The notes under the pieces were generated by a model. The model did not search any database, was not told the DNA's origin, and saw nothing but the letters and a program-made list of their open reading frames with translations. From NCBI GenBank assembly GCA_017563185.1, contig JAFXIL010000195.1, positions 16,159 to 80,158 of the forward strand: a DNA stretch of 64,000 bases, written 5' to 3'. The DNA is from Kiritimatiellia bacterium. GTDB lineage: Bacteria > Verrucomicrobiota > Kiritimatiellia > RFP12 > UBA1067. Positions 9,476 through 50,851 of the stretch are shown here, piece by piece (within the stretch, counting starts at the first letter, position 1; each line of letters starts with the position of its first letter). The translations under genes and the position numbers were made by a program.

Positions 9476-10174
9476 ATGAAAACAGACATTACTAGACGAC
9501 GTTTTGCGGCAGGCGCGGCGTGCGCCGCTCTGGCCGCGTGCGCCGATGCCAAGAGAGGAAAGCCCGCCATGAAGGAGATAGCTCTTCCACCGCTGCCGTA
9601 TGCCGAAGACGCACTTGCGCCCGTCATCTCGGCAAAGACGATTTCCTACCACTACGGAAAGCACCATGCCGGGTACATAAAGGCACTGAATGGCCTTATA
9701 TCCGGAACTCATTATGAAACTCTGTCGCTCTCGGAGATGGTGGGGCTTTCGCGCGAGCTGAACGATCCCGGGATATTCAACAATGCAGCCCAGGCGTGGA
9801 ACCACGACTTCTACTGGCATTCGCTCGCCCCTGTGGGCAAGGGAGGCGAACCGTCGGCCGAACTGCTCAAGGCGATCAACGAGTCGTTCGGGTCGCTTGA
9901 CAATTGCAAGAAGGCGCTTTCCCAAGCCGCCACGAGGCAATTCGGAAGCGGCTGGGCGTGGCTCGTCGCAAAGGGCGGAAAACTCCTCGTGGAGAGTACA
10001 GGCAACGCCGACACGCCGTGCAGGCAGCAGTACGTGAAGCCGCTTCTCACCATCGACGTGTGGGAGCATGCCTACTATCTCGACTGGCAGAACAACCGCG
10101 CCGCATACGTCAAGGCGATTGTCGACGGTCACCTGGACTGGTCCGCCGCCTCCAGTCGCTTCGCGTCGGCCTGA
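9476..10174 (+). CDS. Fe/Mn-family superoxide dismutase with N-terminal export/lipoprotein-like signal
   Basis: SOD signatures are present: YHYGKHH and DVWEHAYYLDWQNNRAAYV. The N-terminus MKTDITRRRFAAGAACAALAACADAK has an RRRF TAT-like motif and a lipobox-like LAAC. An alternative start lies at 9467. Confidence 0.85.
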   Translation: MKTDITRRRFAAGAACAALAACADAKRGKPAMKEIALPPLPYAEDALAPVISAKTISYHYGKHHAGYIKALNGLISGTHYETLSLSEMVGLSRELNDPGIFNNAAQAWNHDFYWHSLAPVGKGGEPSAELLKAINESFGSLDNCKKALSQAATRQFGSGWAWLVAKGGKLLVESTGNADTPCRQQYVKPLLTIDVWEHAYYLDWQNNRAAYVKAIVDGHLDWSAASSRFASA

Positions 10175-10193
10175 GACGACTGGAGGTGTTCCA

Positions 10194-11165
10194 ATGGCAG
10201 CCGCCCATAATGAAGGCGCATCGCGCCGAAAGGCCGGATCTCTGGACCGGCGCTCGTTCGTTGGATCGCTCGCGGCGTTTGGCGCGGGACAGGTTGCGTT
10301 TGGCGCGACGAACTGCGTTGAGCAGACGTCTGCCGCGCCTAAGCCGAATAACAGGTTCTCGGCGTGGGACGAAGTGTCGCTTGGCGGCACGGGCATTCGC
10401 ACGTCGCGTCTTGGCTTCGGAACGGGCGTGAAGTCCGGCAACCGCTCCAGCGGGATGGTCCGCCGCAACGGACACGACGGCGCGGTGAAGCTGGTGCGCG
10501 CCGCATACGAGCGCGGGATAAGGTTCTTCGACACTGCCGACAGCTACGGCACCCACGCGGTGCTGCGCGAGGCGCTCTCTCCGTTTCCGCGTTCGTCCTA
10601 CGTAATCTGCACGAAGTACTGGTTCATGGGCGGCGGCATCCCGGAGGCCGACAAGTCCGACGTCGAGAGCTCCGTCAGCCGCTACCTTCGCGAGCTAGGA
10701 ACGGACTACATTGACATTTTGCAGCTGCATTGCGTGTTTCAGCCAGATTGGCCGACAAATCTCCAGAAGCACATGGAGGGGCTTGAGCGCTGCAAGAAGG
10801 CAGGAAAGATCCGCGCCCATGGCTGCTCGTTCCACGGCGCGAAGTCGCTTCCGCTCGCTGCCGACACGAAGTGGCTTGACGTGGCGCATGTGCAGATCAA
10901 CCCGTTTGGAAGCAAGATGGGACTCAAGCCAGACGAGGCGCTTGAGCAGGTACGGAGACTGCACGCCGCCGGGAAGGGCGTGATCGGGATGAAGGTGCTT
11001 GGCGAAGGGGCTATAGCCAAGGAAGGGCGCATGGACCAGTCGATTGCCTGGGTGCTGAAGAACAATGCTGCGGATGTGCTTGACATCGGTTTTCTCGACA
11101 TCGCCGAGATCGACGACATCGCCCGCCGTATCGCGGCGGTCGAGGGGACAGTCCCCAACACCTAG
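10194..11165 (+). CDS. aldo/keto reductase with twin-arginine signal peptide
   Basis: Internal start MAAAHNEG…SLDRRSFVGSLAAFGAG (TAT motif), with RBS ggaggtg upstream. The AKR fold is indicated by GxGxxxxG…RFFDTADSYG…ILQLHC…GVIGMKVLGEG. The last codons (…GTVPNT*) are themselves a copy of the downstream palindromic repeat. Confidence 0.8.
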   Translation: MAAAHNEGASRRKAGSLDRRSFVGSLAAFGAGQVAFGATNCVEQTSAAPKPNNRFSAWDEVSLGGTGIRTSRLGFGTGVKSGNRSSGMVRRNGHDGAVKLVRAAYERGIRFFDTADSYGTHAVLREALSPFPRSSYVICTKYWFMGGGIPEADKSDVESSVSRYLRELGTDYIDILQLHCVFQPDWPTNLQKHMEGLERCKKAGKIRAHGCSFHGAKSLPLAADTKWLDVAHVQINPFGSKMGLKPDEALEQVRRLHAAGKGVIGMKVLGEGAIAKEGRMDQSIAWVLKNNAADVLDIGFLDIAEIDDIARRIAAVEGTVPNT

Positions 11166-11399
11166 CGGGGACAGTCCCCAATGCTTCCAAGGGGGACAGT
11201 CCCCAATATCCAAGGGGGACAGTCCCCAATGCTTCCAAGGGGGACAGTCCCCAATGTTTGAAAAGGAGAACAGATGAGAACACCTAGCGGGGACAGTCCC
11301 CAATGCTTCAAGGTGACAGTCCCCAATATCCAAGGGTGACAGTCCCCAATGCTTCCAAGGGGGACAGTCCCCAATGTTTAGAAAAGGAGAACAGATGAA
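11142..11399 (+). repeat. tandem duplication (2 x ~122 bp) containing 9 copies of a ~24-bp sub-repeat with palindromic core GGGGACAGTCCCC
   Basis: The direct repeat unit aacacctagcggggacagtccccaatgcttccaag…aaaaggagaacagatga occurs twice (11156-11277 and 11278-11399). Each unit carries four GGGGACAGTCCCCAAT(A/G)(T/C)… sub-repeats at 23-25 bp spacing. A ninth copy lies within the last codons of the upstream reductase gene. Each 122-bp unit ends with RBS aaaaggagaacag plus ATG. Confidence 0.9.
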
Positions 11400-14300
11400 T
11401 GAAAAAAGCGGACGGGCCTGCGAAACGTTGGGTTGTCTTCGTTGGGCGCGGCTGTTGGCTCTTGTGGCGGGGATTGCCGCAGTTGGAGGCGTGAATGGTG
11501 CGGTGTCGTATATAGTTGATTCCGCCGAGGGGCCTGAGAAGGCGAAGTGGGCCGAAGACGTGCTTGAGTTCGCTGATCCGTTCATCGGCTCAGGCGGCAC
11601 GGGCCACACCACTCCGGCGGCCGCGTATCCGTTCGGCATGGTCCAGCCTGGCCCTGACACCAGCCACTCCGGCTGGGAACATTGCTCCGCCTACCAGTAC
11701 GGCGACAAGCGCATCAGGCGCTTCTCCCAGAACCATCTGAGCGGGACAGGCTGTTCTGAGTTCACCGACCTTGGATTCATGCCCTCGGCCGATGACCCTG
11801 ACGATGCGCTGAGGCGCGACTATTCTGCCGGTTTCGACAAGGCTACGGAAAATGCGTCGCCGGGATACTACACCGCCACGCTTGAATGCGGAACGAAGGT
11901 GGAGGCGACGTGCACGAGGCATGTGTCGCTCTTCCGCTTCACGTTTCCGAAGGGCAAGAAGGCGTCGCTCCTGTTCGATCCGTCGTGGTCGTTCTCCAGG
12001 ACAAAGTCCGCAGAAATCGCCACGATGAAGGATAGACGCGTCTCGGGACACGTCGACCGCCACGGCTGGCCGGGCCACGAGTACTGGTTCGCCTGGGAGG
12101 TGTCTGCCGAGCCCACGCGCGCGCGCGTCGTCAGAGAGGCCATGGCGGAGAAGGGCAGAGTGCCGATCTGCGCGTACGAATTCGATGCGGACAGGGACAA
12201 CGTCATCTACCTCAAGGTCGCGCTGTCGCGCACCTCCGCCAAGGGCGCGCGCCGCAACATCGACAAGGAGGTGCCGGACTGGGACTTCGACGGGGTGCTT
12301 GCCGCCAACCGCGCCGCCTGGCGCAGGATACTCGAGCGCGTAAAGGCGAAGGGCACCAGAGACCAGCTAAAGACACTCTATACTTCGCTCTACCACCTCT
12401 GCTTCCAGCCGAACACTATTTCAGACGTTGACGAACCCGACCTCTATTCCACCTTCTCGTGCTGGGATACGTATCGCGCGGCGGGTCCGCTCTACACCAT
12501 CCTCACTCCCGAATACGTGCCCGCGTTCATCAACTCGATGTTGTGGCACTTCGAGAAAAACGGCCACCTCCCCGTATGGACCCTCTGGGGCAAGGACAAC
12601 CAGTGCATGGTCGGCGTGCATTCAGTGCCCATGATTGTCGATGCGTACCTGAAGGGCTTCAAGGGCGTGGACTGGGAGCGGGCGTTCGACTGCGTGCGCA
12701 AGACGCTGAGGGAGAACCGCGGCAGATGGATTGCGCGATACGAGCTCCTCGACAAGTACGGCTACTATCCCTGCGACTTCATCAAGAACGAATCGGTGTC
12801 GTGGCTGCTCGAAAACTGCTACGACGATGCCTGCGCGTATCGTATGGCCAAGAAGCTCGGCGGCAGGAAAGAGGACGAGAAGTTCTTCCTTGAGCGTTCC
12901 CGCACCTGGACGAAGTGCTTCGACCCGAAGACCGGCTTCATACGCGCCCGCGACTCGAAGGGCAGATGGCGCGAACCTTTTGATCCCTACAGAATCCACG
13001 GCGAAGGCCATCACCACTACACGGAGGGCAACGCATTCCACTGGAACTGGCATGTCATGCAGGATCCTGACCTTCTCGTCAAACTGCTTGGCGGCAAGGA
13101 CGCCGCGCTCAAGAGGCTTTACGGACTCTTCAACGAAGACCCCAGCAAGCTTTCCGATGCGCCGCCGGATGTGACCGGTCTTATCGGGCAGTACTGCCAC
13201 GGCAACGAGCCTAGCCACCATAACATCTATTTCTTCTCTTTGCTCGGCAGGCGCGACCTCGCCGCCCAGTACATAAGGGAAGTGATGGATACGCAGTATC
13301 AGACCACTCCCACGGGCCTCTGCGGAAACGACGACTGCGGGCAGATGAGCGCGTGGTGCATATTCAGTACGCTGGGTTTCTATCCGTTCGACCCGTGCGG
13401 CGGCAAATACGTGCTTGGTGAAGCGCAGATGGAGGAGATATCCATCGACGTAGGCGGCGGCAAGCGGTTCCGGGTGTCGTCCGAACTGCCCGGCGAGGCT
13501 TCCAAGGCGGTTCAGTTCAACGGACGCAAGATGGACGGCGTCATGATCGCCCACGACGAGATAATGAAGGGCGGCACGCTCGACTTCGTTGGAGGCACCT
13601 CGAGGTTCGACTACGTCTTCGACACGACCGGCGCCCCGGAACTTGCCGCATGGACCAGGCAGAACCTTGCGCCGCTTATCCGCAAATGGTATCCGAAGCT
13701 GACCGAGATGTTCCCGTCGGAAGGCTGGAGCCCGAACAGGAAAGTCAGATTCCGCTTCAAGGAGAGAATCGGCTGCCCGGCGTATGCGGCTGGCAACTGC
13801 GTGACTTTGGACCGCGAGTGGATCAATAGCAACCCCACGGACGTCGGCTGCGCGATACACGAGCTTTTCCACATTGTCCAGGGCGGGTATCGCAAAGCTC
13901 CTGGCTGGCTTGCAGAAGGACTTGCCGACTACGTCAGGTTCTATCTCTATGAGCCTGAAGCGCATGGATGCGACTTGATTCTAGGCTCCTCCGAGGTACG
14001 CTACAACCAATCCTATCGCGTGTCCGCAAACTTCCTCAATTTTGTAGAAACGAAATACCCCGGCGTCGTGAAGGAGCTGAACGCGCTCTGCCGTCAGGGC
14101 AAATATGAAGAAGAGACCTACTGGAAGAAGCGCACCGGCAAGACGGTCAAAGAAATCGAGAGGGAATGGAAGTCCCTAGGGGATATGCCGTTCAGGTACT
14201 ACCGCTTCTGCGTTGACCGCACGAAGCGCCCGGCCGACTGCATGCAGCTTTCCGAAATCGAGCTGATCGATTCAAAGGGCAAGGTGATTCCCGCCGGGAG

Positions 14301-14658
14301 ATTCGAGCTTGGCTTCAACGGTAGCGGCGGCAGAAAGTTCGGAAATGGCGAAACGCCTGACCGGGCCATTGACGGCGACGTCGAAACCAAGTGGCTGGAT
14401 TTCAGGGCCGAGCACAATGCCAAGCCCTCGCTTCGCGCCGCCGTTTGGCTGCAGTTCAAGTTCGCCTCGCCGACTGAGCTCTCCGGCTACAGGTGGTACA
14501 CGGCGAACGACTTTGAAGACCGAGATCCCGGCGCCTGGCGCCTCCTCGGATCCAACGACGGCGCCAACTGGGTCATGATCGACCAGGTCACCGGCTTTCG
14601 CGCCACTTCAGAGCGCAACAAACTCGCCTTCTCCCGGCGCCTGCCAGAAGTGAAGTAG
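11395..14658 (+). CDS. secreted GH92-family alpha-mannosidase fused to an HExxH (BSP-like zincin) domain and a C-terminal F5/8-type discoidin (CBM32-like) domain
   Basis: A signal peptide follows M at 11395 (…LLALVAGIAAVGGVNGA). The GH92 N-terminal signature is GSGGTGHTTPAAAYPFGMVQPGPDT, and the GH92 body runs to about aa 740. Residues 745-930 contain GCAIHELFHIVQG (HExxH). Residues 940-1087 are F5/8-C-like (…DGDVETKWLDFRAEH…WRLLGSNDGANWVMI). An ATG at 11374 inside the repeat is an unlikely start. Confidence 0.85.
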   Translation: MNEKSGRACETLGCLRWARLLALVAGIAAVGGVNGAVSYIVDSAEGPEKAKWAEDVLEFADPFIGSGGTGHTTPAAAYPFGMVQPGPDTSHSGWEHCSAYQYGDKRIRRFSQNHLSGTGCSEFTDLGFMPSADDPDDALRRDYSAGFDKATENASPGYYTATLECGTKVEATCTRHVSLFRFTFPKGKKASLLFDPSWSFSRTKSAEIATMKDRRVSGHVDRHGWPGHEYWFAWEVSAEPTRARVVREAMAEKGRVPICAYEFDADRDNVIYLKVALSRTSAKGARRNIDKEVPDWDFDGVLAANRAAWRRILERVKAKGTRDQLKTLYTSLYHLCFQPNTISDVDEPDLYSTFSCWDTYRAAGPLYTILTPEYVPAFINSMLWHFEKNGHLPVWTLWGKDNQCMVGVHSVPMIVDAYLKGFKGVDWERAFDCVRKTLRENRGRWIARYELLDKYGYYPCDFIKNESVSWLLENCYDDACAYRMAKKLGGRKEDEKFFLERSRTWTKCFDPKTGFIRARDSKGRWREPFDPYRIHGEGHHHYTEGNAFHWNWHVMQDPDLLVKLLGGKDAALKRLYGLFNEDPSKLSDAPPDVTGLIGQYCHGNEPSHHNIYFFSLLGRRDLAAQYIREVMDTQYQTTPTGLCGNDDCGQMSAWCIFSTLGFYPFDPCGGKYVLGEAQMEEISIDVGGGKRFRVSSELPGEASKAVQFNGRKMDGVMIAHDEIMKGGTLDFVGGTSRFDYVFDTTGAPELAAWTRQNLAPLIRKWYPKLTEMFPSEGWSPNRKVRFRFKERIGCPAYAAGNCVTLDREWINSNPTDVGCAIHELFHIVQGGYRKAPGWLAEGLADYVRFYLYEPEAHGCDLILGSSEVRYNQSYRVSANFLNFVETKYPGVVKELNALCRQGKYEEETYWKKRTGKTVKEIEREWKSLGDMPFRYYRFCVDRTKRPADCMQLSEIELIDSKGKVIPAGRFELGFNGSGGRKFGNGETPDRAIDGDVETKWLDFRAEHNAKPSLRAAVWLQFKFASPTELSGYRWYTANDFEDRDPGAWRLLGSNDGANWVMIDQVTGFRATSERNKLAFSRRLPEVK

Positions 14659-18725: not shown

Positions 18726-18898
18726 GTCTGTTCCTTTCGGTTGTAAGTTTGTTTGAGAGTTTGAGAGTTTGAAAGTTTGAAGGTTTGAAAGTTTGAGAGT
18801 TTGAAAGGTTGAGAGTTTGAAAGGTTGAGAGTTTGAAAGGTTGAGAGTTTGAAAGTTTGAGAGTTTGAAGGTTTGAAAGGTTGAGAGTTTGATGGGTT
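18726..18898. repeat. 8-bp microsatellite (GTTTGARR / GGTTGAGA; ~18 tandem copies) occupying the whole rodA-rng intergenic spacer
   Basis: The tract gtttgagagtttgagagtttgaaagtttgaaggtttgaaagtttgagagtttgaaaggttgagagtttgaaagg… occupies 18747-18895. On the coding (minus) strand it reads as (YYTTCAAAC)n, i.e. a CA/U-rich unstructured 5' leader directly in front of the rng start. Confidence 0.9.
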
Positions 18899-31653: not shown

Positions 31654-33062
31654 TTTGACGCTGGCTTTTCCGCAGGCTTCGTTTCCGCTGGCTTTGTCTC
31701 CACTGGCTTGGCTTCTGCAGATTTTGCTTCCGCAGGCTGCGCTTCTGCGGGCTTCGCGGCGGCGGGTTTCTTCTCGGCGGGCTTTTTCGCGGGGAGCTCA
31801 ACGGGGAAGCCGTTGTCCTTCATCTCCTTCGCGAGGGTCTTTAGGGAGGGTTCGTCTTCGGCGGCCTTTTCGAGGGCCGTCTTGAAGAAGTCGGCTGCGA
31901 GGGCGCGGTATTCGGCGGCCTTGGCGGAATCGTTGGAATTCTTGGAGAATTCGGCGCAGCGGAGGTAGTTGCGGGCGATCACCCATTCGCGTGAGTAGAG
32001 GATGCCGGTGGAGGGGTCGCAGTCCTCGAAGTCCTTCTGCTCGTCGGAGCGCATGAAATCGATGAAGGCGAGCATCTGCTTCGTGGCCTCGGGCCAGTTC
32101 TTGGCCTCCATGGCCTTGTGTCCGCGCAGCTTGGCGGCGGTGGCCTTGCACCATGCGGGCGAGCGGTTGGGGAGGCCGCCTTTCTCGAGAAGCGCAATTG
32201 CGCTGTCGAAGTCGTTCACGAGGAAGAAGCCGTCGAGGCGGCGCTCGGCGAGGAGCTCGGCGCCGCCCTTTGAAAGTCGGCCCGACTTGACGAGTGCCTC
32301 GGTGTAGGCGAGCATTTCGCCGATGGCCTTCACGTTCGGAGGGTTCTGCGGCGTTCCGTCGCCGCCGAAGCGGATGATCTGCTCCTCGCAGATGGAGGCC
32401 ACGAAGTCGGACGATGTGAAGAAGGGCGACGCCTCGAGCTTGCGGAGGTTCGCGACGATCGCATCGGACGGCATCTCGCGGAATGCGCCGGAGAACGCCG
32501 AACGCACCATGCGCGAGGCGGTGCCAGAGCGGCCTACCTTCACGAGCCGTGCGCATGCGCCGTCGAGGTCTTTGGCCTGGACGAGCTGCACCACGCCGCT
32601 CGCGCGGAGCTGGTCGATGCTCTCCGTGAGAAGCCGCTGTGCGCGGAGAGGCGGAGTGTTCGTCGCGGGTGGCGGGAACGTCTTCACGAAGGAGTCTGCG
32701 AACATAAGCAGCTTGTCCGCCGCGGGGGTGAGCGCCTCCTTGGCGTCACGCGCGCGGTCGAGTGCGCGCGAGGCGTGGCCGGCGATGGCCTCCTGCGTGA
32801 TCAGCGTCTCGTGCCGCAGCTCAAGCCAGGGGAAGTTCGGCTTGCCGTAGATGCGCCACACCTTCTTCGTCGAGAGCTCCTTGAGCAGCTCAGTCTTCGC
32901 CTCGGTGGACGCCGCCTTCGCGAAACGCTGCTCCACCTGCTGGACCGTCGCGGAGCGCTTGGCCTCGGTGTAGCGAAGTTGCCGGCATCCGAATCCGATG
33001 GCCGCCACCACGACGACTGCCAGCGCCGATATTACTGCGATTTTCACTGAAGACTTGCTCAT
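31650..33062 (-). CDS. hypothetical membrane-anchored protein with C-terminal (KPAE)n low-complexity tail
   Basis: It has a signal anchor (MSKSSVKIAVISALAVVVVAAIGF). The C-terminus is [47 protein letters not shown] recognise no domain. It is the first gene of the hyp-metalloenzyme-icd-tyrA string. Confidence 0.5.
   Translation of the reverse strand: MSKSSVKIAVISALAVVVVAAIGFGCRQLRYTEAKRSATVQQVEQRFAKAASTEAKTELLKELSTKKVWRIYGKPNFPWLELRHETLITQEAIAGHASRALDRARDAKEALTPAADKLLMFADSFVKTFPPPATNTPPLRAQRLLTESIDQLRASGVVQLVQAKDLDGACARLVKVGRSGTASRMVRSAFSGAFREMPSDAIVANLRKLEASPFFTSSDFVASICEEQIIRFGGDGTPQNPPNVKAIGEMLAYTEALVKSGRLSKGGAELLAERRLDGFFLVNDFDSAIALLEKGGLPNRSPAWCKATAAKLRGHKAMEAKNWPEATKQMLAFIDFMRSDEQKDFEDCDPSTGILYSREWVIARNYLRCAEFSKNSNDSAKAAEYRALAADFFKTALEKAAEDEPSLKTLAKEMKDNGFPVELPAKKPAEKKPAAAKPAEAQPAEAKSAEAKPVETKPAETKPAEKPASK

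Positions 33063-44455: not shown

Positions 44456-44459
<4 letters not shown>
43854..44459 (-). CDS. secreted Cys-rich zinc-finger protein with DnaJ-type CxxCxGxG repeats
   Basis: It has a signal peptide (MKTQATFVFAIAAVVALFAEP). At least 7 CxxC pairs are present, several as CxxCxGxG (CPLCSGTG, CRKCHGTG, CGGCSGIG, CRKCHGQG). Its start overlaps the stop of the response-regulator gene (ATGA). Confidence 0.6.
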
Positions 44460-45811
<1,352 letters not shown>

Positions 45812-49699: not shown

Positions 49700-50851
49700 T
49701 TATGTGAGGCTCCTGACGCGCTTTTCGAGGCGGGGGACAATTACGGTGAACTTGGTGCCTTCGCCTTCCTTGGACTCCACGTCTATGTCGCCGCCGTGTG
49801 CGCGTGCGATTCTGCGCGAAAGCATCAGGCCAAGGCCCGTTCCCTGCTTCTTCGTGGTGCGGTACGGCTCGAAAAGCGCAGCGACGGCGCTTGGCGCCAT
49901 GCCAGCGCCTGTGTCGCGGAACGACACTGTGACGGAGTCGTCGCTGGAATCGAGCGCGATCGAAAGTTCGCCGCCGTCCTTCATGGCCTCGAGCGCGTTC
50001 TTCACGAGGTTGAAGAACACCTGCTCCATCTGCGCGCGGTCGAGGGCGACTAGCGGAAGGGCGGGTGGAAGGTCGAGGGTCACGCGTATGCGGCGGCTCT
50101 CGATCTGCGGCTTGAGAGTCTCGAGTGTGTCGCGAAGGGGATCAGCAAGCGAGCCGGGCACCAGGTTGGGGCGAACGGGACGCATCGCCTCGAGGAAGCC
50201 GCGGTTGATGTCGATGATGCGGCGGATCTCGTTCTGGGCGGTCGCGACGTCTGCGAGCAGGCGCTCACGCCGGGCGGAGTCCGATTCTTTGCGGAACTCG
50301 CGGGCCATGAGCTGGAGGTTCATTGAAAGGGCGTTTAGCGGGTTGCCGATCTCGTGCGCGAGACCGGCGGCAAGGTCCTGGATGGCGTCCGTGCGCTCGC
50401 TCTCGCGCGCGTCCGCCGCGCGCGCGTGCTCCCCTGTGACATCGCGGATGATCACGACGACGGCGTTGCCGTTGGGAAGGGAGCCAAGCTCGAGTATGCG
50501 GCGCTCGGGGTAGGCGATCTCGATCTCGCAGGAGGCCTTGCGCGCCCAGCCTGCGCCCTCGGCTGAGGGGTTCAGCAGACGGTCCCAGTCCCAGCCCGGC
50601 AGCATGTCGCGTATGGGCTTGCCGCGCCCGCGCGAGAAGGGACATGCCGCCAGACGCTCGGCAATGCTGTTGGAATACATCAGCATACCGCTAGAGTCTA
50701 TCACGAGCACCCCCTCCGAAAGCGTGTTGAAGACTGACTCCAAAAACCCGATTTCGTTGGCAAGGGCCTCGAACTGATGACGACGATCTGCCGCATCGAG
50801 CTTGTCGATTCGGTCAGCGACTTTCTTGAAAAATTTCTTCATGTGCGCCAT
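49700..50851 (-). CDS. cytoplasmic PAS-domain sensor histidine kinase (NtrB-like)
   Basis: It has no TM segment. A PAS-like region is present (LSEGVLVIDSSGMLMYSNSIAERL). The H-box is LAHEIGNPLNAL. The N, G1 and G2 boxes are LVKNALEAM, DTGAGM and GTGLGL. It is 383 aa and is the first gene of the operon. Confidence 0.85.
   Translation of the reverse strand: MAHMKKFFKKVADRIDKLDAADRRHQFEALANEIGFLESVFNTLSEGVLVIDSSGMLMYSNSIAERLAACPFSRGRGKPIRDMLPGWDWDRLLNPSAEGAGWARKASCEIEIAYPERRILELGSLPNGNAVVVIIRDVTGEHARAADARESERTDAIQDLAAGLAHEIGNPLNALSMNLQLMAREFRKESDSARRERLLADVATAQNEIRRIIDINRGFLEAMRPVRPNLVPGSLADPLRDTLETLKPQIESRRIRVTLDLPPALPLVALDRAQMEQVFFNLVKNALEAMKDGGELSIALDSSDDSVTVSFRDTGAGMAPSAVAALFEPYRTTKKQGTGLGLMLSRRIARAHGGDIDVESKEGEGTKFTVIVPRLEKRVRSLT

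Follow-up and report, generated by a model that had tools for sequence, protein, structure and literature searches.

A probable REP-like palindromic repeat array, locally amplified at the junction of an aldo/keto reductase gene and a GH92 gene of a Kiritimatiellia bacterium

The stretch of DNA considered here, 64,000 nucleotides of contig JAFXIL010000195.1 (positions 16,159 to 80,158) from the Kiritimatiellia bacterium assembly GCA_017563185.1 and hereafter called the window, carries an array of nine 13-nt near-palindromic cores, located by motif search at 11144-11372, at the junction of two genes of its forward strand. The upstream gene (10191..11165, with an uncertain start at 10068 or 10191) encodes an aldo/keto reductase (Pfam PF00248, E 6e-31), and the downstream one (11395..14658) a glycoside hydrolase of family GH92 that also contains a BSP-like peptidase domain and an F5/8 type C domain (PF17678, PF07971 with E 7e-139, PF04450, and PF00754). 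The translation signals of the GH92 gene, the Shine-Dalgarno sequence AAGGAG at 11384-11389 and the start codon at 11395-11397, occupy 11384..11397; this start, already proposed in a preliminary description made from the letters alone, is backed by the gene call in an independent assembly, L001, which begins at the equivalent ATG. Homologues of both proteins come from rumen and gut metagenomes, the named ones being Kiritimatiellae. At the N-terminus of the reductase (10191-10330) a twin-arginine-like signal (…SLDRRSFVGSLAAFGAGQVAFG…) is recognizable, and one homologue, P0163, has a Pfam TAT_signal match, which suggests, at the level of sequence, that an exported aldo/keto reductase is encoded beside a secreted GH92 enzyme.

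The cores have the form GGGGAC-A-GTCCCC and start at 11144, 11167, 11192, 11215, 11240, 11289, 11312, 11335, and 11360. The preliminary description counted nine perfect palindromes; the number is correct, but the exact sequence GGGGACAGTCCCC is found in only seven of the nine, cores 7 and 8 (11312 and 11335) reading GGTGACAGTCCCC, a GGTGAC variant with a G>T change. The start-to-start spacing is 23 or 25 bp, and 49 bp over the duplication joint, so it does not correspond exactly to the two helical turns that had been suggested. All parts of the array lie on the forward strand. The founding doublet (11144..11179), composed of core 1 (11144-11156), the spacer AACACCTAGC, and core 2 (11167-11179), is followed by cores 3-5 (11192, 11215, and 11240; 11192..11252) with the spacers AATATCCAAG and AATGCTTCCAAG; these spacer variants occur in the window and L001 only, among 268 loci. 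A tandem duplication is superimposed on this arrangement. Its first copy, 11156..11277, comprises cores 2-5 and the first AAAAGGAGAACAG-ATG (Tandem Repeats Finder; repeat families D2 and D3), and its second copy, 11278..11399, comprises cores 6-9 (11289, 11312, 11335, and 11360) together with the GH92 ribosome-binding site and ATG (Tandem Repeats Finder, motif search, and repeat finder). Tandem Repeats Finder describes 11157-11398 as 2.0 copies of a 120-bp period with 95% matches and a score of 449, and gives sub-periods of 23 and 48 within the array. The duplication reported earlier is therefore borne out by direct reading, by Tandem Repeats Finder, and by the repeat finder, and each unit does end with a Shine-Dalgarno sequence and ATG, both units terminating in AAAAGGAGAACAGATG; what does not hold is a constant unit of 122 bp, since the offset between the units varies from 120 to 122 bp owing to three 1-nt indels. 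The duplicated segment is about 121 bp long, and the two units differ at six positions, indels included. No copy of GGGGWCWGWCCCC with up to one mismatch exists outside the array within the window, the chance expectation being 0.18, and nine cores were reached in none of 100 shuffles. A CRISPR array, with repeats of 24-48 nt and unique spacers of like length, was ruled out: the core measures 13 nt, and the spacers, of 10-12 nt, recur instead of being unique.

The last six codons of the reductase gene (GTVPNT) and its TAG stop codon (11163-11165) come from the inserted repeat doublet; as had been noticed before, a copy of the motif forms the end of the protein (...AAVEGTVPNT*), core 1 encoding G-T-V-P, and the stop codon lies inside the first spacer. 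The duplicated ribosome-binding site and ATG create a putative upstream open reading frame (ORF) of 21 codons, MRTPSGDSPQCFKVTVPNIQG*, at 11274..11339 of the forward strand, known from translation of the sequence and in agreement with the preliminary description. It is preceded by AAGGAG at 11263-11268, 5 nt before its ATG at 11274; its TGA stop codon arises from the G>T change in core 8, and it does not overlap the GH92 gene.

The history of the junction can be read from its alleles, as 0, 2, or 9 cores are present at exactly this position in strains that are 95-97% identical. The nine-core allele is known from the window and from L001, a separate ENA metagenome assembly with an identical array and four single-nucleotide polymorphisms (SNPs) in about 8.2 kb of flanking sequence. 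The two-core allele, in which the founding doublet is the entire element, was found in three independent assemblies (L222 from JGI, L267 and L268 from ENA), which share 95-97% identity with the window; the allele reads GTCGA-core-AACACCTAGC-core-AATGCTTAGAAAAGGAGAACGA-ATG, with about 37 nt from the reductase stop codon to the GH92 ATG. Beyond this form, the nine-core allele has three units with CCAAGG-type spacers and the duplication of about 121 bp. The outgroups L262, L263, and L265 are devoid of the core, and the reductase ends there with GTCGAATAG or GTCGAAGCTTGA, i.e., with GTC GAA TAG in L262 and L263 (85% identity) and GTC GAA GCT TGA in L265 (88% identity). Similarly, reductase homologues usually end with ...RRIAAV(E)(A), that is, RRIAAV followed by 0-8 residues. 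Comparison of the alleles shows that an insertion of about 40 bp, with two perfect cores in it, split GTCGA from GCTTAG where the ancestral stop codon had been, extending the reductase by the six residues GTVPNT and providing a new TAG stop codon just before the GH92 ribosome-binding site.

A close relative, L002, which is 97% identical through GH92, has no core. It reads GCGGCGG-GCTAG-AAAGGAG...ATG at the junction, and its reductase gene is a fragmented pseudogene (L002 5700-6010). Since the ancestral TCGA is missing there too, L002 represents a derived deletion, either of TCGA together with the array or a small one in a copy that never held the array. The first approximately 20 residues of its GH92 protein (METVSGVGLPSRLLKTRLLF...) bear no relation to the corresponding residues of the window or L222, the remainder being about 99% identical, and this differing N-terminus suggests recombination at the junction. 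Neither was the core found before the GH92 orthologues of the related Kiritimatiellae L003-L010, distant orthologues with other genes upstream. Judged from these sequences, the array is recent and lineage-specific and the locus is unstable, because alleles with 0, 2, and 9 cores coexist and the outgroups and orthologues are core-free; the instability anticipated in the preliminary description is thus borne out.

A single core folds weakly, pairing as DNA over 5 bp around a CAG triloop (-3.3 kcal/mol), and the stable structures result from pairing between adjacent cores. In the founding doublet the two cores pair into a 13-bp stem that has a single A.A mismatch and encloses a loop of 10 nt, at -29.3 kcal/mol (z -3.6) as RNA and -12.7 kcal/mol (z -4.4) as DNA. 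For the doublets, the z values of DNA and RNA folds span -3.6 to -5.6, and the whole array as RNA reaches -110.7 kcal/mol (z -4.5). The hairpin potential ascribed to the motif earlier is therefore a property of the array and its doublets; a mini-hairpin with a 6-bp stem and a 1-nt loop is impossible, and a lone core is limited to 5 bp and a triloop. In the two-core and nine-core alleles alike, a hairpin is located 8-11 nt before the GH92 Shine-Dalgarno sequence. A scan of 10800-11700 revealed neither a sigma-70-like promoter nor a Rho-independent terminator, i.e., a GC hairpin with a U tract. No Rfam match at the gathering score was obtained in the window, and permissive scans returned only sub-threshold generic hairpins (miRNA- or SRP-like).

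The core is far from confined to this locus. When one genome per species was scanned for the pattern core-N6-20-core (185,579 species), core doublets or arrays were found in at least 120 stretches from at least 80 assemblies of about 12 phyla; these numbers, like the metagenome counts given below, are lower bounds and not estimates of prevalence. The carriers include Actinomycetota (Coriobacteriia, Solirubrobacterales, Gaiellales, and others), Planctomycetota (including Kuenenia), Kiritimatiellae, Lentisphaerae, Verrucomicrobia, Omnitrophota, Acidobacteriota, Alpha-, Beta-, and Gammaproteobacteria, Desulfobacterota, Bacillota, Bacteroidota, Chloroflexota, Patescibacteria, and Acetothermia, with one cultured strain, Pseudoduganella lurida. 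At least eight Kiritimatiellae metagenome-assembled genomes (MAGs) other than that of the window possess it. Units present at several loci were seen, among the matches listed, in Paratractidigestivibacter (at least seven loci), in a gammaproteobacterial MAG (six), and in a Kuenenia MAG (four). The core itself is invariant, and the flanks and spacers are lineage-specific: in 370 distinct contexts no base reaches more than 45% at any flanking position. The palindrome is lengthened in several lineages by complementary arms in the flanks, which differ from one lineage to another, e.g., tgtcacatt-core-aatgtgaca. Two loci of the Coriobacteriales MAG S14M_St_47, L036 and L061, contain three-core composites that form perfect palindromes of about 67 nt (stem-core-stem-core-stem'-core'-stem'); their outer and inner stems differ yet stay complementary, a covariation consistent with a selected hairpin. 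Another Coriobacteriales contig with a core doublet, L015, has at 1175-1423 a strong match to the raiA RNA (Rfam RF03072, 162 bits), which is unrelated to the repeat. The preliminary description had set a generic REP (repetitive extragenic palindromic) element against a GH92-specific control region, and with the core present in at least 80 genomes beside unrelated neighbours it is essentially the former that is supported.

An unbiased control scan of metagenomes with the degenerate pattern GGGGWSNSWCCCC-N6-20-GGGGWSNSWCCCC, which allows for four classes of palindromic stem and leaves the centre base free, delimits the family further. The 120 loci listed (L142-L261) comprise 69 GGGGTC.GACCCC pairs, 25 GGGGAC.GTCCCC pairs, 17 non-repeats, and 9 identical non-palindromic pairs, with no GGGGAG.CTCCCC or GGGGTG.CACCCC pair among them. 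Among these loci, then, the core of the window is outnumbered almost threefold by the sister core GGGGTC[AT]GACCCC. The centre base is A or T in 93 of the 98 pair types, and complementary combinations of positions 5 and 9 are strongly favoured over mixed ones. From the invariant classes and the A/T centre a defined family, GGGG[AT]C[AT]G[AT]CCCC, can therefore be recognized. Avoidance of the Shine-Dalgarno-like GGAG and GGTG might contribute to the missing GGGGAG and GGGGTG classes, but it does not account for the A/T centre. Rare non-palindromic hybrid cores, GGGGACAGACCCC or GGGGTCTGTCCCC (L142, L171, L172, L198, and L226), occur as direct repeats or with their reverse complement in long perfect hairpins; as such hybrids exist, the half-sites GGGGAC and GGGGTC are interchangeable. 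In viral contigs the core pair gave three matches and control palindromes one and none, numbers too small to be informative, and the third control was a 14-mer and hence not clean. Full-text literature searches with the core and the sister core as DNA or RNA strings yielded no relevant paper.

The doublet is the modal form of the clusters (96 of 176 and 85 of 137), and the nine cores of the window constitute the largest of about 310 clusters, no other sampled one exceeding six. All core-to-core distances from 16 to 33 bp are populated, with no helical phasing or periodicity. According to crude ORF-based gene calls, 20 arrays are located where genes converge, 34 in gaps between co-oriented genes, and 7 where genes diverge, i.e., the arrays lie mostly at gene 3' ends, many of them 0-35 nt from a stop codon, and are depleted between divergent genes; by the same calls the centre base has no fixed orientation relative to genes. 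All-against-all clustering of the ORFs from 120 genome loci detected no protein family recurrently adjoining the arrays, the largest cluster being one of ABC-type paralogues. The A-run and T-run flanks of a bidirectional terminator accompany only 3-4% of the family cores.

A link to transposases of the REP-associated tyrosine transposase (RAYT) type, IS200/IS605-like enzymes of the Y1/HUH kind, emerged solely from a signature search prompted by the literature, not from the clustering of neighbours. Di Nocera et al. (2013; PMC3733652) described RAYT-like genes, TIRYT, flanked by inverted repeats that share GGGGWSAS, many of which form dimers or clusters like REPs. Most TIRYTs were assigned by Quentin et al. 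(2018; PMC6006769) to subclass 2.1 of TnpA-Y1, the second largest subclass and one not confined to a single taxon, with the flank consensus GGGG[AT][CG]A[CG] and with no REP-like structures near its genes. The RAYT group 1 of Bertels et al. (2017; PMC5581495) corresponds to this subclass; it has the widest distribution (21 classes), with flanking 16-mers at about 12 per replicon. The first 8 nt of the core (GGGGACAG, then TCCCC) and of the sister core (GGGGTCAG) both fit GGGG[AT][CG]A[CG]. The class-2 signature HuH...Y---NP was scanned over all ORFs of about 270 loci and of the window, and two Y1 proteins were recovered, L188 and the planctomycetotal L053, each bracketed by core doublets with inverted centre bases: the L188 gene has two copies of GGGGTCAGACCCC upstream and two of GGGGTCTGACCCC downstream, and the L053 gene three copies of GGGGACTGTCCCC upstream and two of GGGGACAGTCCCC downstream. 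Both proteins belong to PF01797, and their best NCBIfam match is the REP-associated tyrosine transposase NF047646, which L188 reaches with 80.9 bits, against a cut-off of 80, and L053 with 67.6 bits. With E<=1e-10 as the threshold, 3,543 homologues of the L053 protein were found. A relative at 85% identity, P0243, shows the same bracketing in all five assemblies checked (L275, L277, L281, L283, and L284), and the doublet downstream of it, core-gcggc-core, recurs at dispersed sites of the Kuenenia MAG. Core-bracketed RAYT-type genes are known in this way from three lineages. The L053 sequence itself had no significant match in the PDB. An AlphaFold2 model of P0243 (pLDDT 84, pTM 0.83) has as its best fold match 4ER8, the E. 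coli RAYT with a REP hairpin (E 4e-8), the ISDra2 and IS608 transposases ranking below it, and includes at the C-terminus an extension of some 85 residues in which three helices are predicted (178-216).

Nearest to the array among known repeats are the TIRYT-type repeats (the TIRs of TIRtrons; subclass 2.1, RAYT group 1) and the canonical REP, BIME, and REPIN elements of E. coli and Pseudomonas. With the former it shares the GGGGWSAS fit of the first 8 nt, the occurrence as dimers and clusters, the low-to-moderate copy number per genome, the distribution across phyla, and, in other lineages (L053, L188, and L275-L284), Y1/HUH genes bracketed by inverted copies. It differs in that the full 13-nt palindrome consists of two overlapping inverted half-sites, in that tandem doublets form a REPIN-like hairpin of a kind that Quentin et al. 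did not report near subclass 2.1 genes, in that a C-terminal helix-turn-helix (HTH) of the subclass 2.1 sort (Bac_DnaA_C-, HTH_23-, or HTH_28-like) is not Pfam-detectable in the proteins found here, and in that the window contains no such gene. Like canonical REPs, the family consists of short extragenic repeats, GC-rich and able to form hairpins, that lie at gene 3' ends or between cistrons and are present as singletons, doublets, and tandem-amplified clusters with presence/absence polymorphism between strains; the doublet gives a longer hairpin, as in REPINs, with its 13-bp stem and one mismatch, and the modelled fold of the partner enzyme best matches E. coli RAYT 4ER8. Unlike them, it has no conserved GT[AG]G guide tetranucleotide (the flanks in the window are TCGA, TAGC, and CAAG), its core has 13 nt instead of 20-40 nt, its sequence is conserved across phyla instead of being species- or genus-specific, and its copy number appears to be far below the hundreds of copies of enterobacterial and pseudomonad REPs. 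The mycobacterial MIRUs are also similar, being tandem units of strain-variable copy number placed intercistronically in operons and carrying stop and start signals. However, MIRUs are non-palindromic units of 46-101 bp with small ORFs that overlap the stop and start codons of the flanking genes, and here it is a palindrome of 13 nt that is repeated, the upstream ORF stays clear of GH92, and there is a link to transposases.

The array is probably a cluster of REP-like palindromic repeats of the family GGGG[AT]C[AT]G[AT]CCCC, a RAYT-type repeat of the TIRYT/group 1 kind that has been amplified locally, and not a GH92-specific control region. Three steps are proposed for its formation. As the allele comparison shows, a two-core doublet landed at the reductase stop codon in an ancestor of the rumen Kiritimatiellae lineage, the insertion presumably being catalysed in trans by a RAYT-type enzyme acting on a single-stranded hairpin, in keeping with the known biology of such families. 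Three units were then added, a change for which slipped-strand mispairing or unequal recombination of identical cores is the likeliest route; the resulting state is seen in the alleles, and the mechanism is conjectural. Finally, a tandem duplication of about 121 bp, apparent in the sequence, brought the number of cores to nine and supplied the second ribosome-binding site and ATG and the 21-codon upstream ORF. The present effect, if any, would be that of a stable stack of intercistronic RNA hairpins, by analogy with E. coli REP and BIME elements, and not that of a protein-binding operator; an RNA-level function is the most plausible one because the array lies inside an apparent single reductase-GH92 transcription unit with no promoter- or terminator-like site. 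Such hairpins could shield the upstream message against degradation by 3' exonucleases, limit read-through by attenuation, or act on translation, at the stop codon of the reductase and at the start of GH92. The coexistence of alleles with 0, 2, and 9 cores and the two decayed cores suggest largely neutral turnover.

Several observations weigh against this interpretation. The window has neither a RAYT-signature ORF nor a second core locus, so dispersal and a cognate enzyme are, for this genome, extrapolated from other lineages, including the eight other Kiritimatiellae MAGs with the core. At the insertion site no target-site duplication or guide tetranucleotide was identified, and the units of the window lack the extended lower stems of several other lineages. 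Slippage does not fully explain the amplification, because the CCAAGG-type spacers are not simple copies of the founding spacer. As regards the enzyme, no Pfam HTH was found in the C-termini of the core-flanked transposases even at E<=10, and for this reason their membership of subclass 2.1 or group 1, with which sequence and model are consistent, is tentative. Homologues of the L053 protein at 53-59% identity (L269-L273) are flanked by the terminal inverted repeat AAGGGGACAT[T/G]CTAC ... TAGAATGTCCCCTT, which has only the GGGGACA half-site, and not the full palindrome, in common with the core. The placement of the family at gene ends rests on crude calls that put 58 of 141 arrays inside a chosen ORF in GC-rich genomes, and an effect on the expression of the reductase or GH92 is one that the array may have, by inference from E. 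coli REPs.

The preliminary description favoured an operator array for a dimeric regulator, or an iteron, in which nine dyad sites would bind a transcription factor or a replication or partition protein and control GH92. A 13-bp palindrome of 6-1-6 architecture is indeed typical of an HTH-dimer site, the sites stand at regular 23- or 25-bp intervals directly before GH92, and the favoured complementary pairs at positions 5 and 9 are compatible with the symmetry of a dimer as well as with pairing of bases. This proposal has nevertheless become very improbable, given that the core is absent from L002 and from before the GH92 orthologues L003-L010, that the gap of about 37 nt in the two-core allele leaves no room for a promoter and the nine-core allele contains no promoter-like site, and that the same core, matching the RAYT/TIRYT motif, adjoins unrelated genes in about 12 phyla, mostly at their 3' ends, with unphased spacing of 16-33 bp and with no recurrent regulator as neighbour. 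Somewhat better placed, yet still unlikely, is a purely local minisatellite, i.e., a chance palindrome expanded by slippage with no transposase involved, its likeness to sequences elsewhere being convergence on a GC-rich hairpin. Such an origin would agree with the single locus in 64 kb, the spacers private to this locus, and the lack of a RAYT gene within the window, and the missing GGGGAG and GGGGTG classes could, as we infer, reflect Shine-Dalgarno avoidance in place of protein recognition. It is at odds with the founding event, which, relative to the outgroups, brought about 40 bp and two perfect cores in one step, with the A/T centre in 93 of 98 cases and the restriction to two of four stem classes among the metagenome loci listed, with the fit to the published transposase-flanking motif and the bracketing of RAYT genes by the core, and with the dispersal of same-unit families in other genomes.

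Of the readings that compete with a REP-like cluster, the one with the most in its favour, although we hold it to be a minority possibility, is a selected cis-acting RNA element, whose hairpins and translated upstream ORF would tune the reductase against GH92 through stabilization, attenuation, or translational coupling or occlusion, with the copy number as a rheostat. The array folds better than shuffled controls (z -4.5) and sits in the interior of an apparent operon, where no promoter or terminator was found; the hairpin before the GH92 Shine-Dalgarno sequence keeps its 8-11 nt distance in both alleles, and the G>T change gives the upstream ORF an in-frame stop codon. In addition, work cited in Quentin et al. 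(PMC6006769) reports that E. coli REPs stabilize upstream mRNA and have an effect on translation when a stop codon lies no more than about 15 nt away. Alleles with 0, 2, and 9 cores in near-identical strains, however, resemble neutral turnover more than conservation, two of the cores have already decayed, and terminator-like A/T-run flanks are confined to the 3-4% of family members mentioned above. That a shorter repeat was mis-assembled is scarcely credible at all. Short-read metagenome assemblies are error-prone at repeats, and other assemblies do contain the two-core allele; the duplication is nonetheless not an assembly artefact, a danger that the preliminary description had pointed out, because the separate assembly L001 holds the identical nine-core structure with SNPs in its flanks, nor is it a collapsed or duplicated identical k-mer path, because the units differ at six positions including indels. 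Among other candidates, DosR-type GGGAC half-sites were dropped on account of their different spacing, and CsrA-binding hairpin arrays because the sister core has no GGA. No support was obtained for matS, KorB/ParB-type centromere sites, Tn3 inverted-repeat tips, cyanobacterial STRR heptamers, type IIS restriction sites, G-quadruplexes, or type III antitoxin RNA repeats, and these were dropped as well.

It is also worth recording three further features of the window. At 18751-18892 there is an AT-rich repeat, in a window of 63% GC, with an 8-bp tandem unit, GTTTGAAA/GTTTGAGA, in about 18 copies (or a 16-bp period in 8.9 copies with 90% match). A repeat with a 15-bp period, TTCCGCAGGCTTCGC, in about six copies and then three copies of GCGGGCTTCTTCGCG, is located at 31668-31792 and is probably a coding repeat. 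The segment 45841-49699 is a low-GC island (0.47 at 46-48 kb, against about 0.63 elsewhere) with three minus-strand ORFs of 143, 263, and 876 aa that have no Pfam match; it lies between genes for a sigma-54 response regulator (44456-45811) and a PAS histidine kinase (49700-50851) and may have been acquired horizontally.

For the field of RAYTs and REPINs the potential interest lies in one exact 13-nt palindrome that recurs, together with its sister, in doublet form across at least 80 species and about 12 phyla and brackets RAYT-type genes, against a published view of the widest-ranging RAYT group as having loosely defined terminal repeats and no REP-like hairpins. This association across phyla is a side result and, for the present, a tentative one. 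A bolder proposal, which we regard as speculative and rather doubtful, is that the palindrome doublets are an unrecognized REPIN-equivalent of RAYT group 1/TIRYT, the core being held invariant over a dozen or more phyla by one conserved enzyme, and that insertion and amplification here rewrote the operon junction, with a new C-terminus and stop codon, a second ribosome-binding site and start codon, and a translated upstream ORF, and made GH92 expression dependent on copy number.

REP-like repeats partnered with RAYTs or TIRYTs are already known; what is unusual in the present case is the large local array and the well-documented effect on a gene boundary. At this locus the reading as a GH92-specific operator is removed, and an allelic series takes its place, with no cores in the outgroups and two or nine in near-identical strains. 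This series shows a REP-type doublet landing on a stop codon, extending the protein, supplying a new stop codon, and then duplicating the translation signals of the neighbouring gene.

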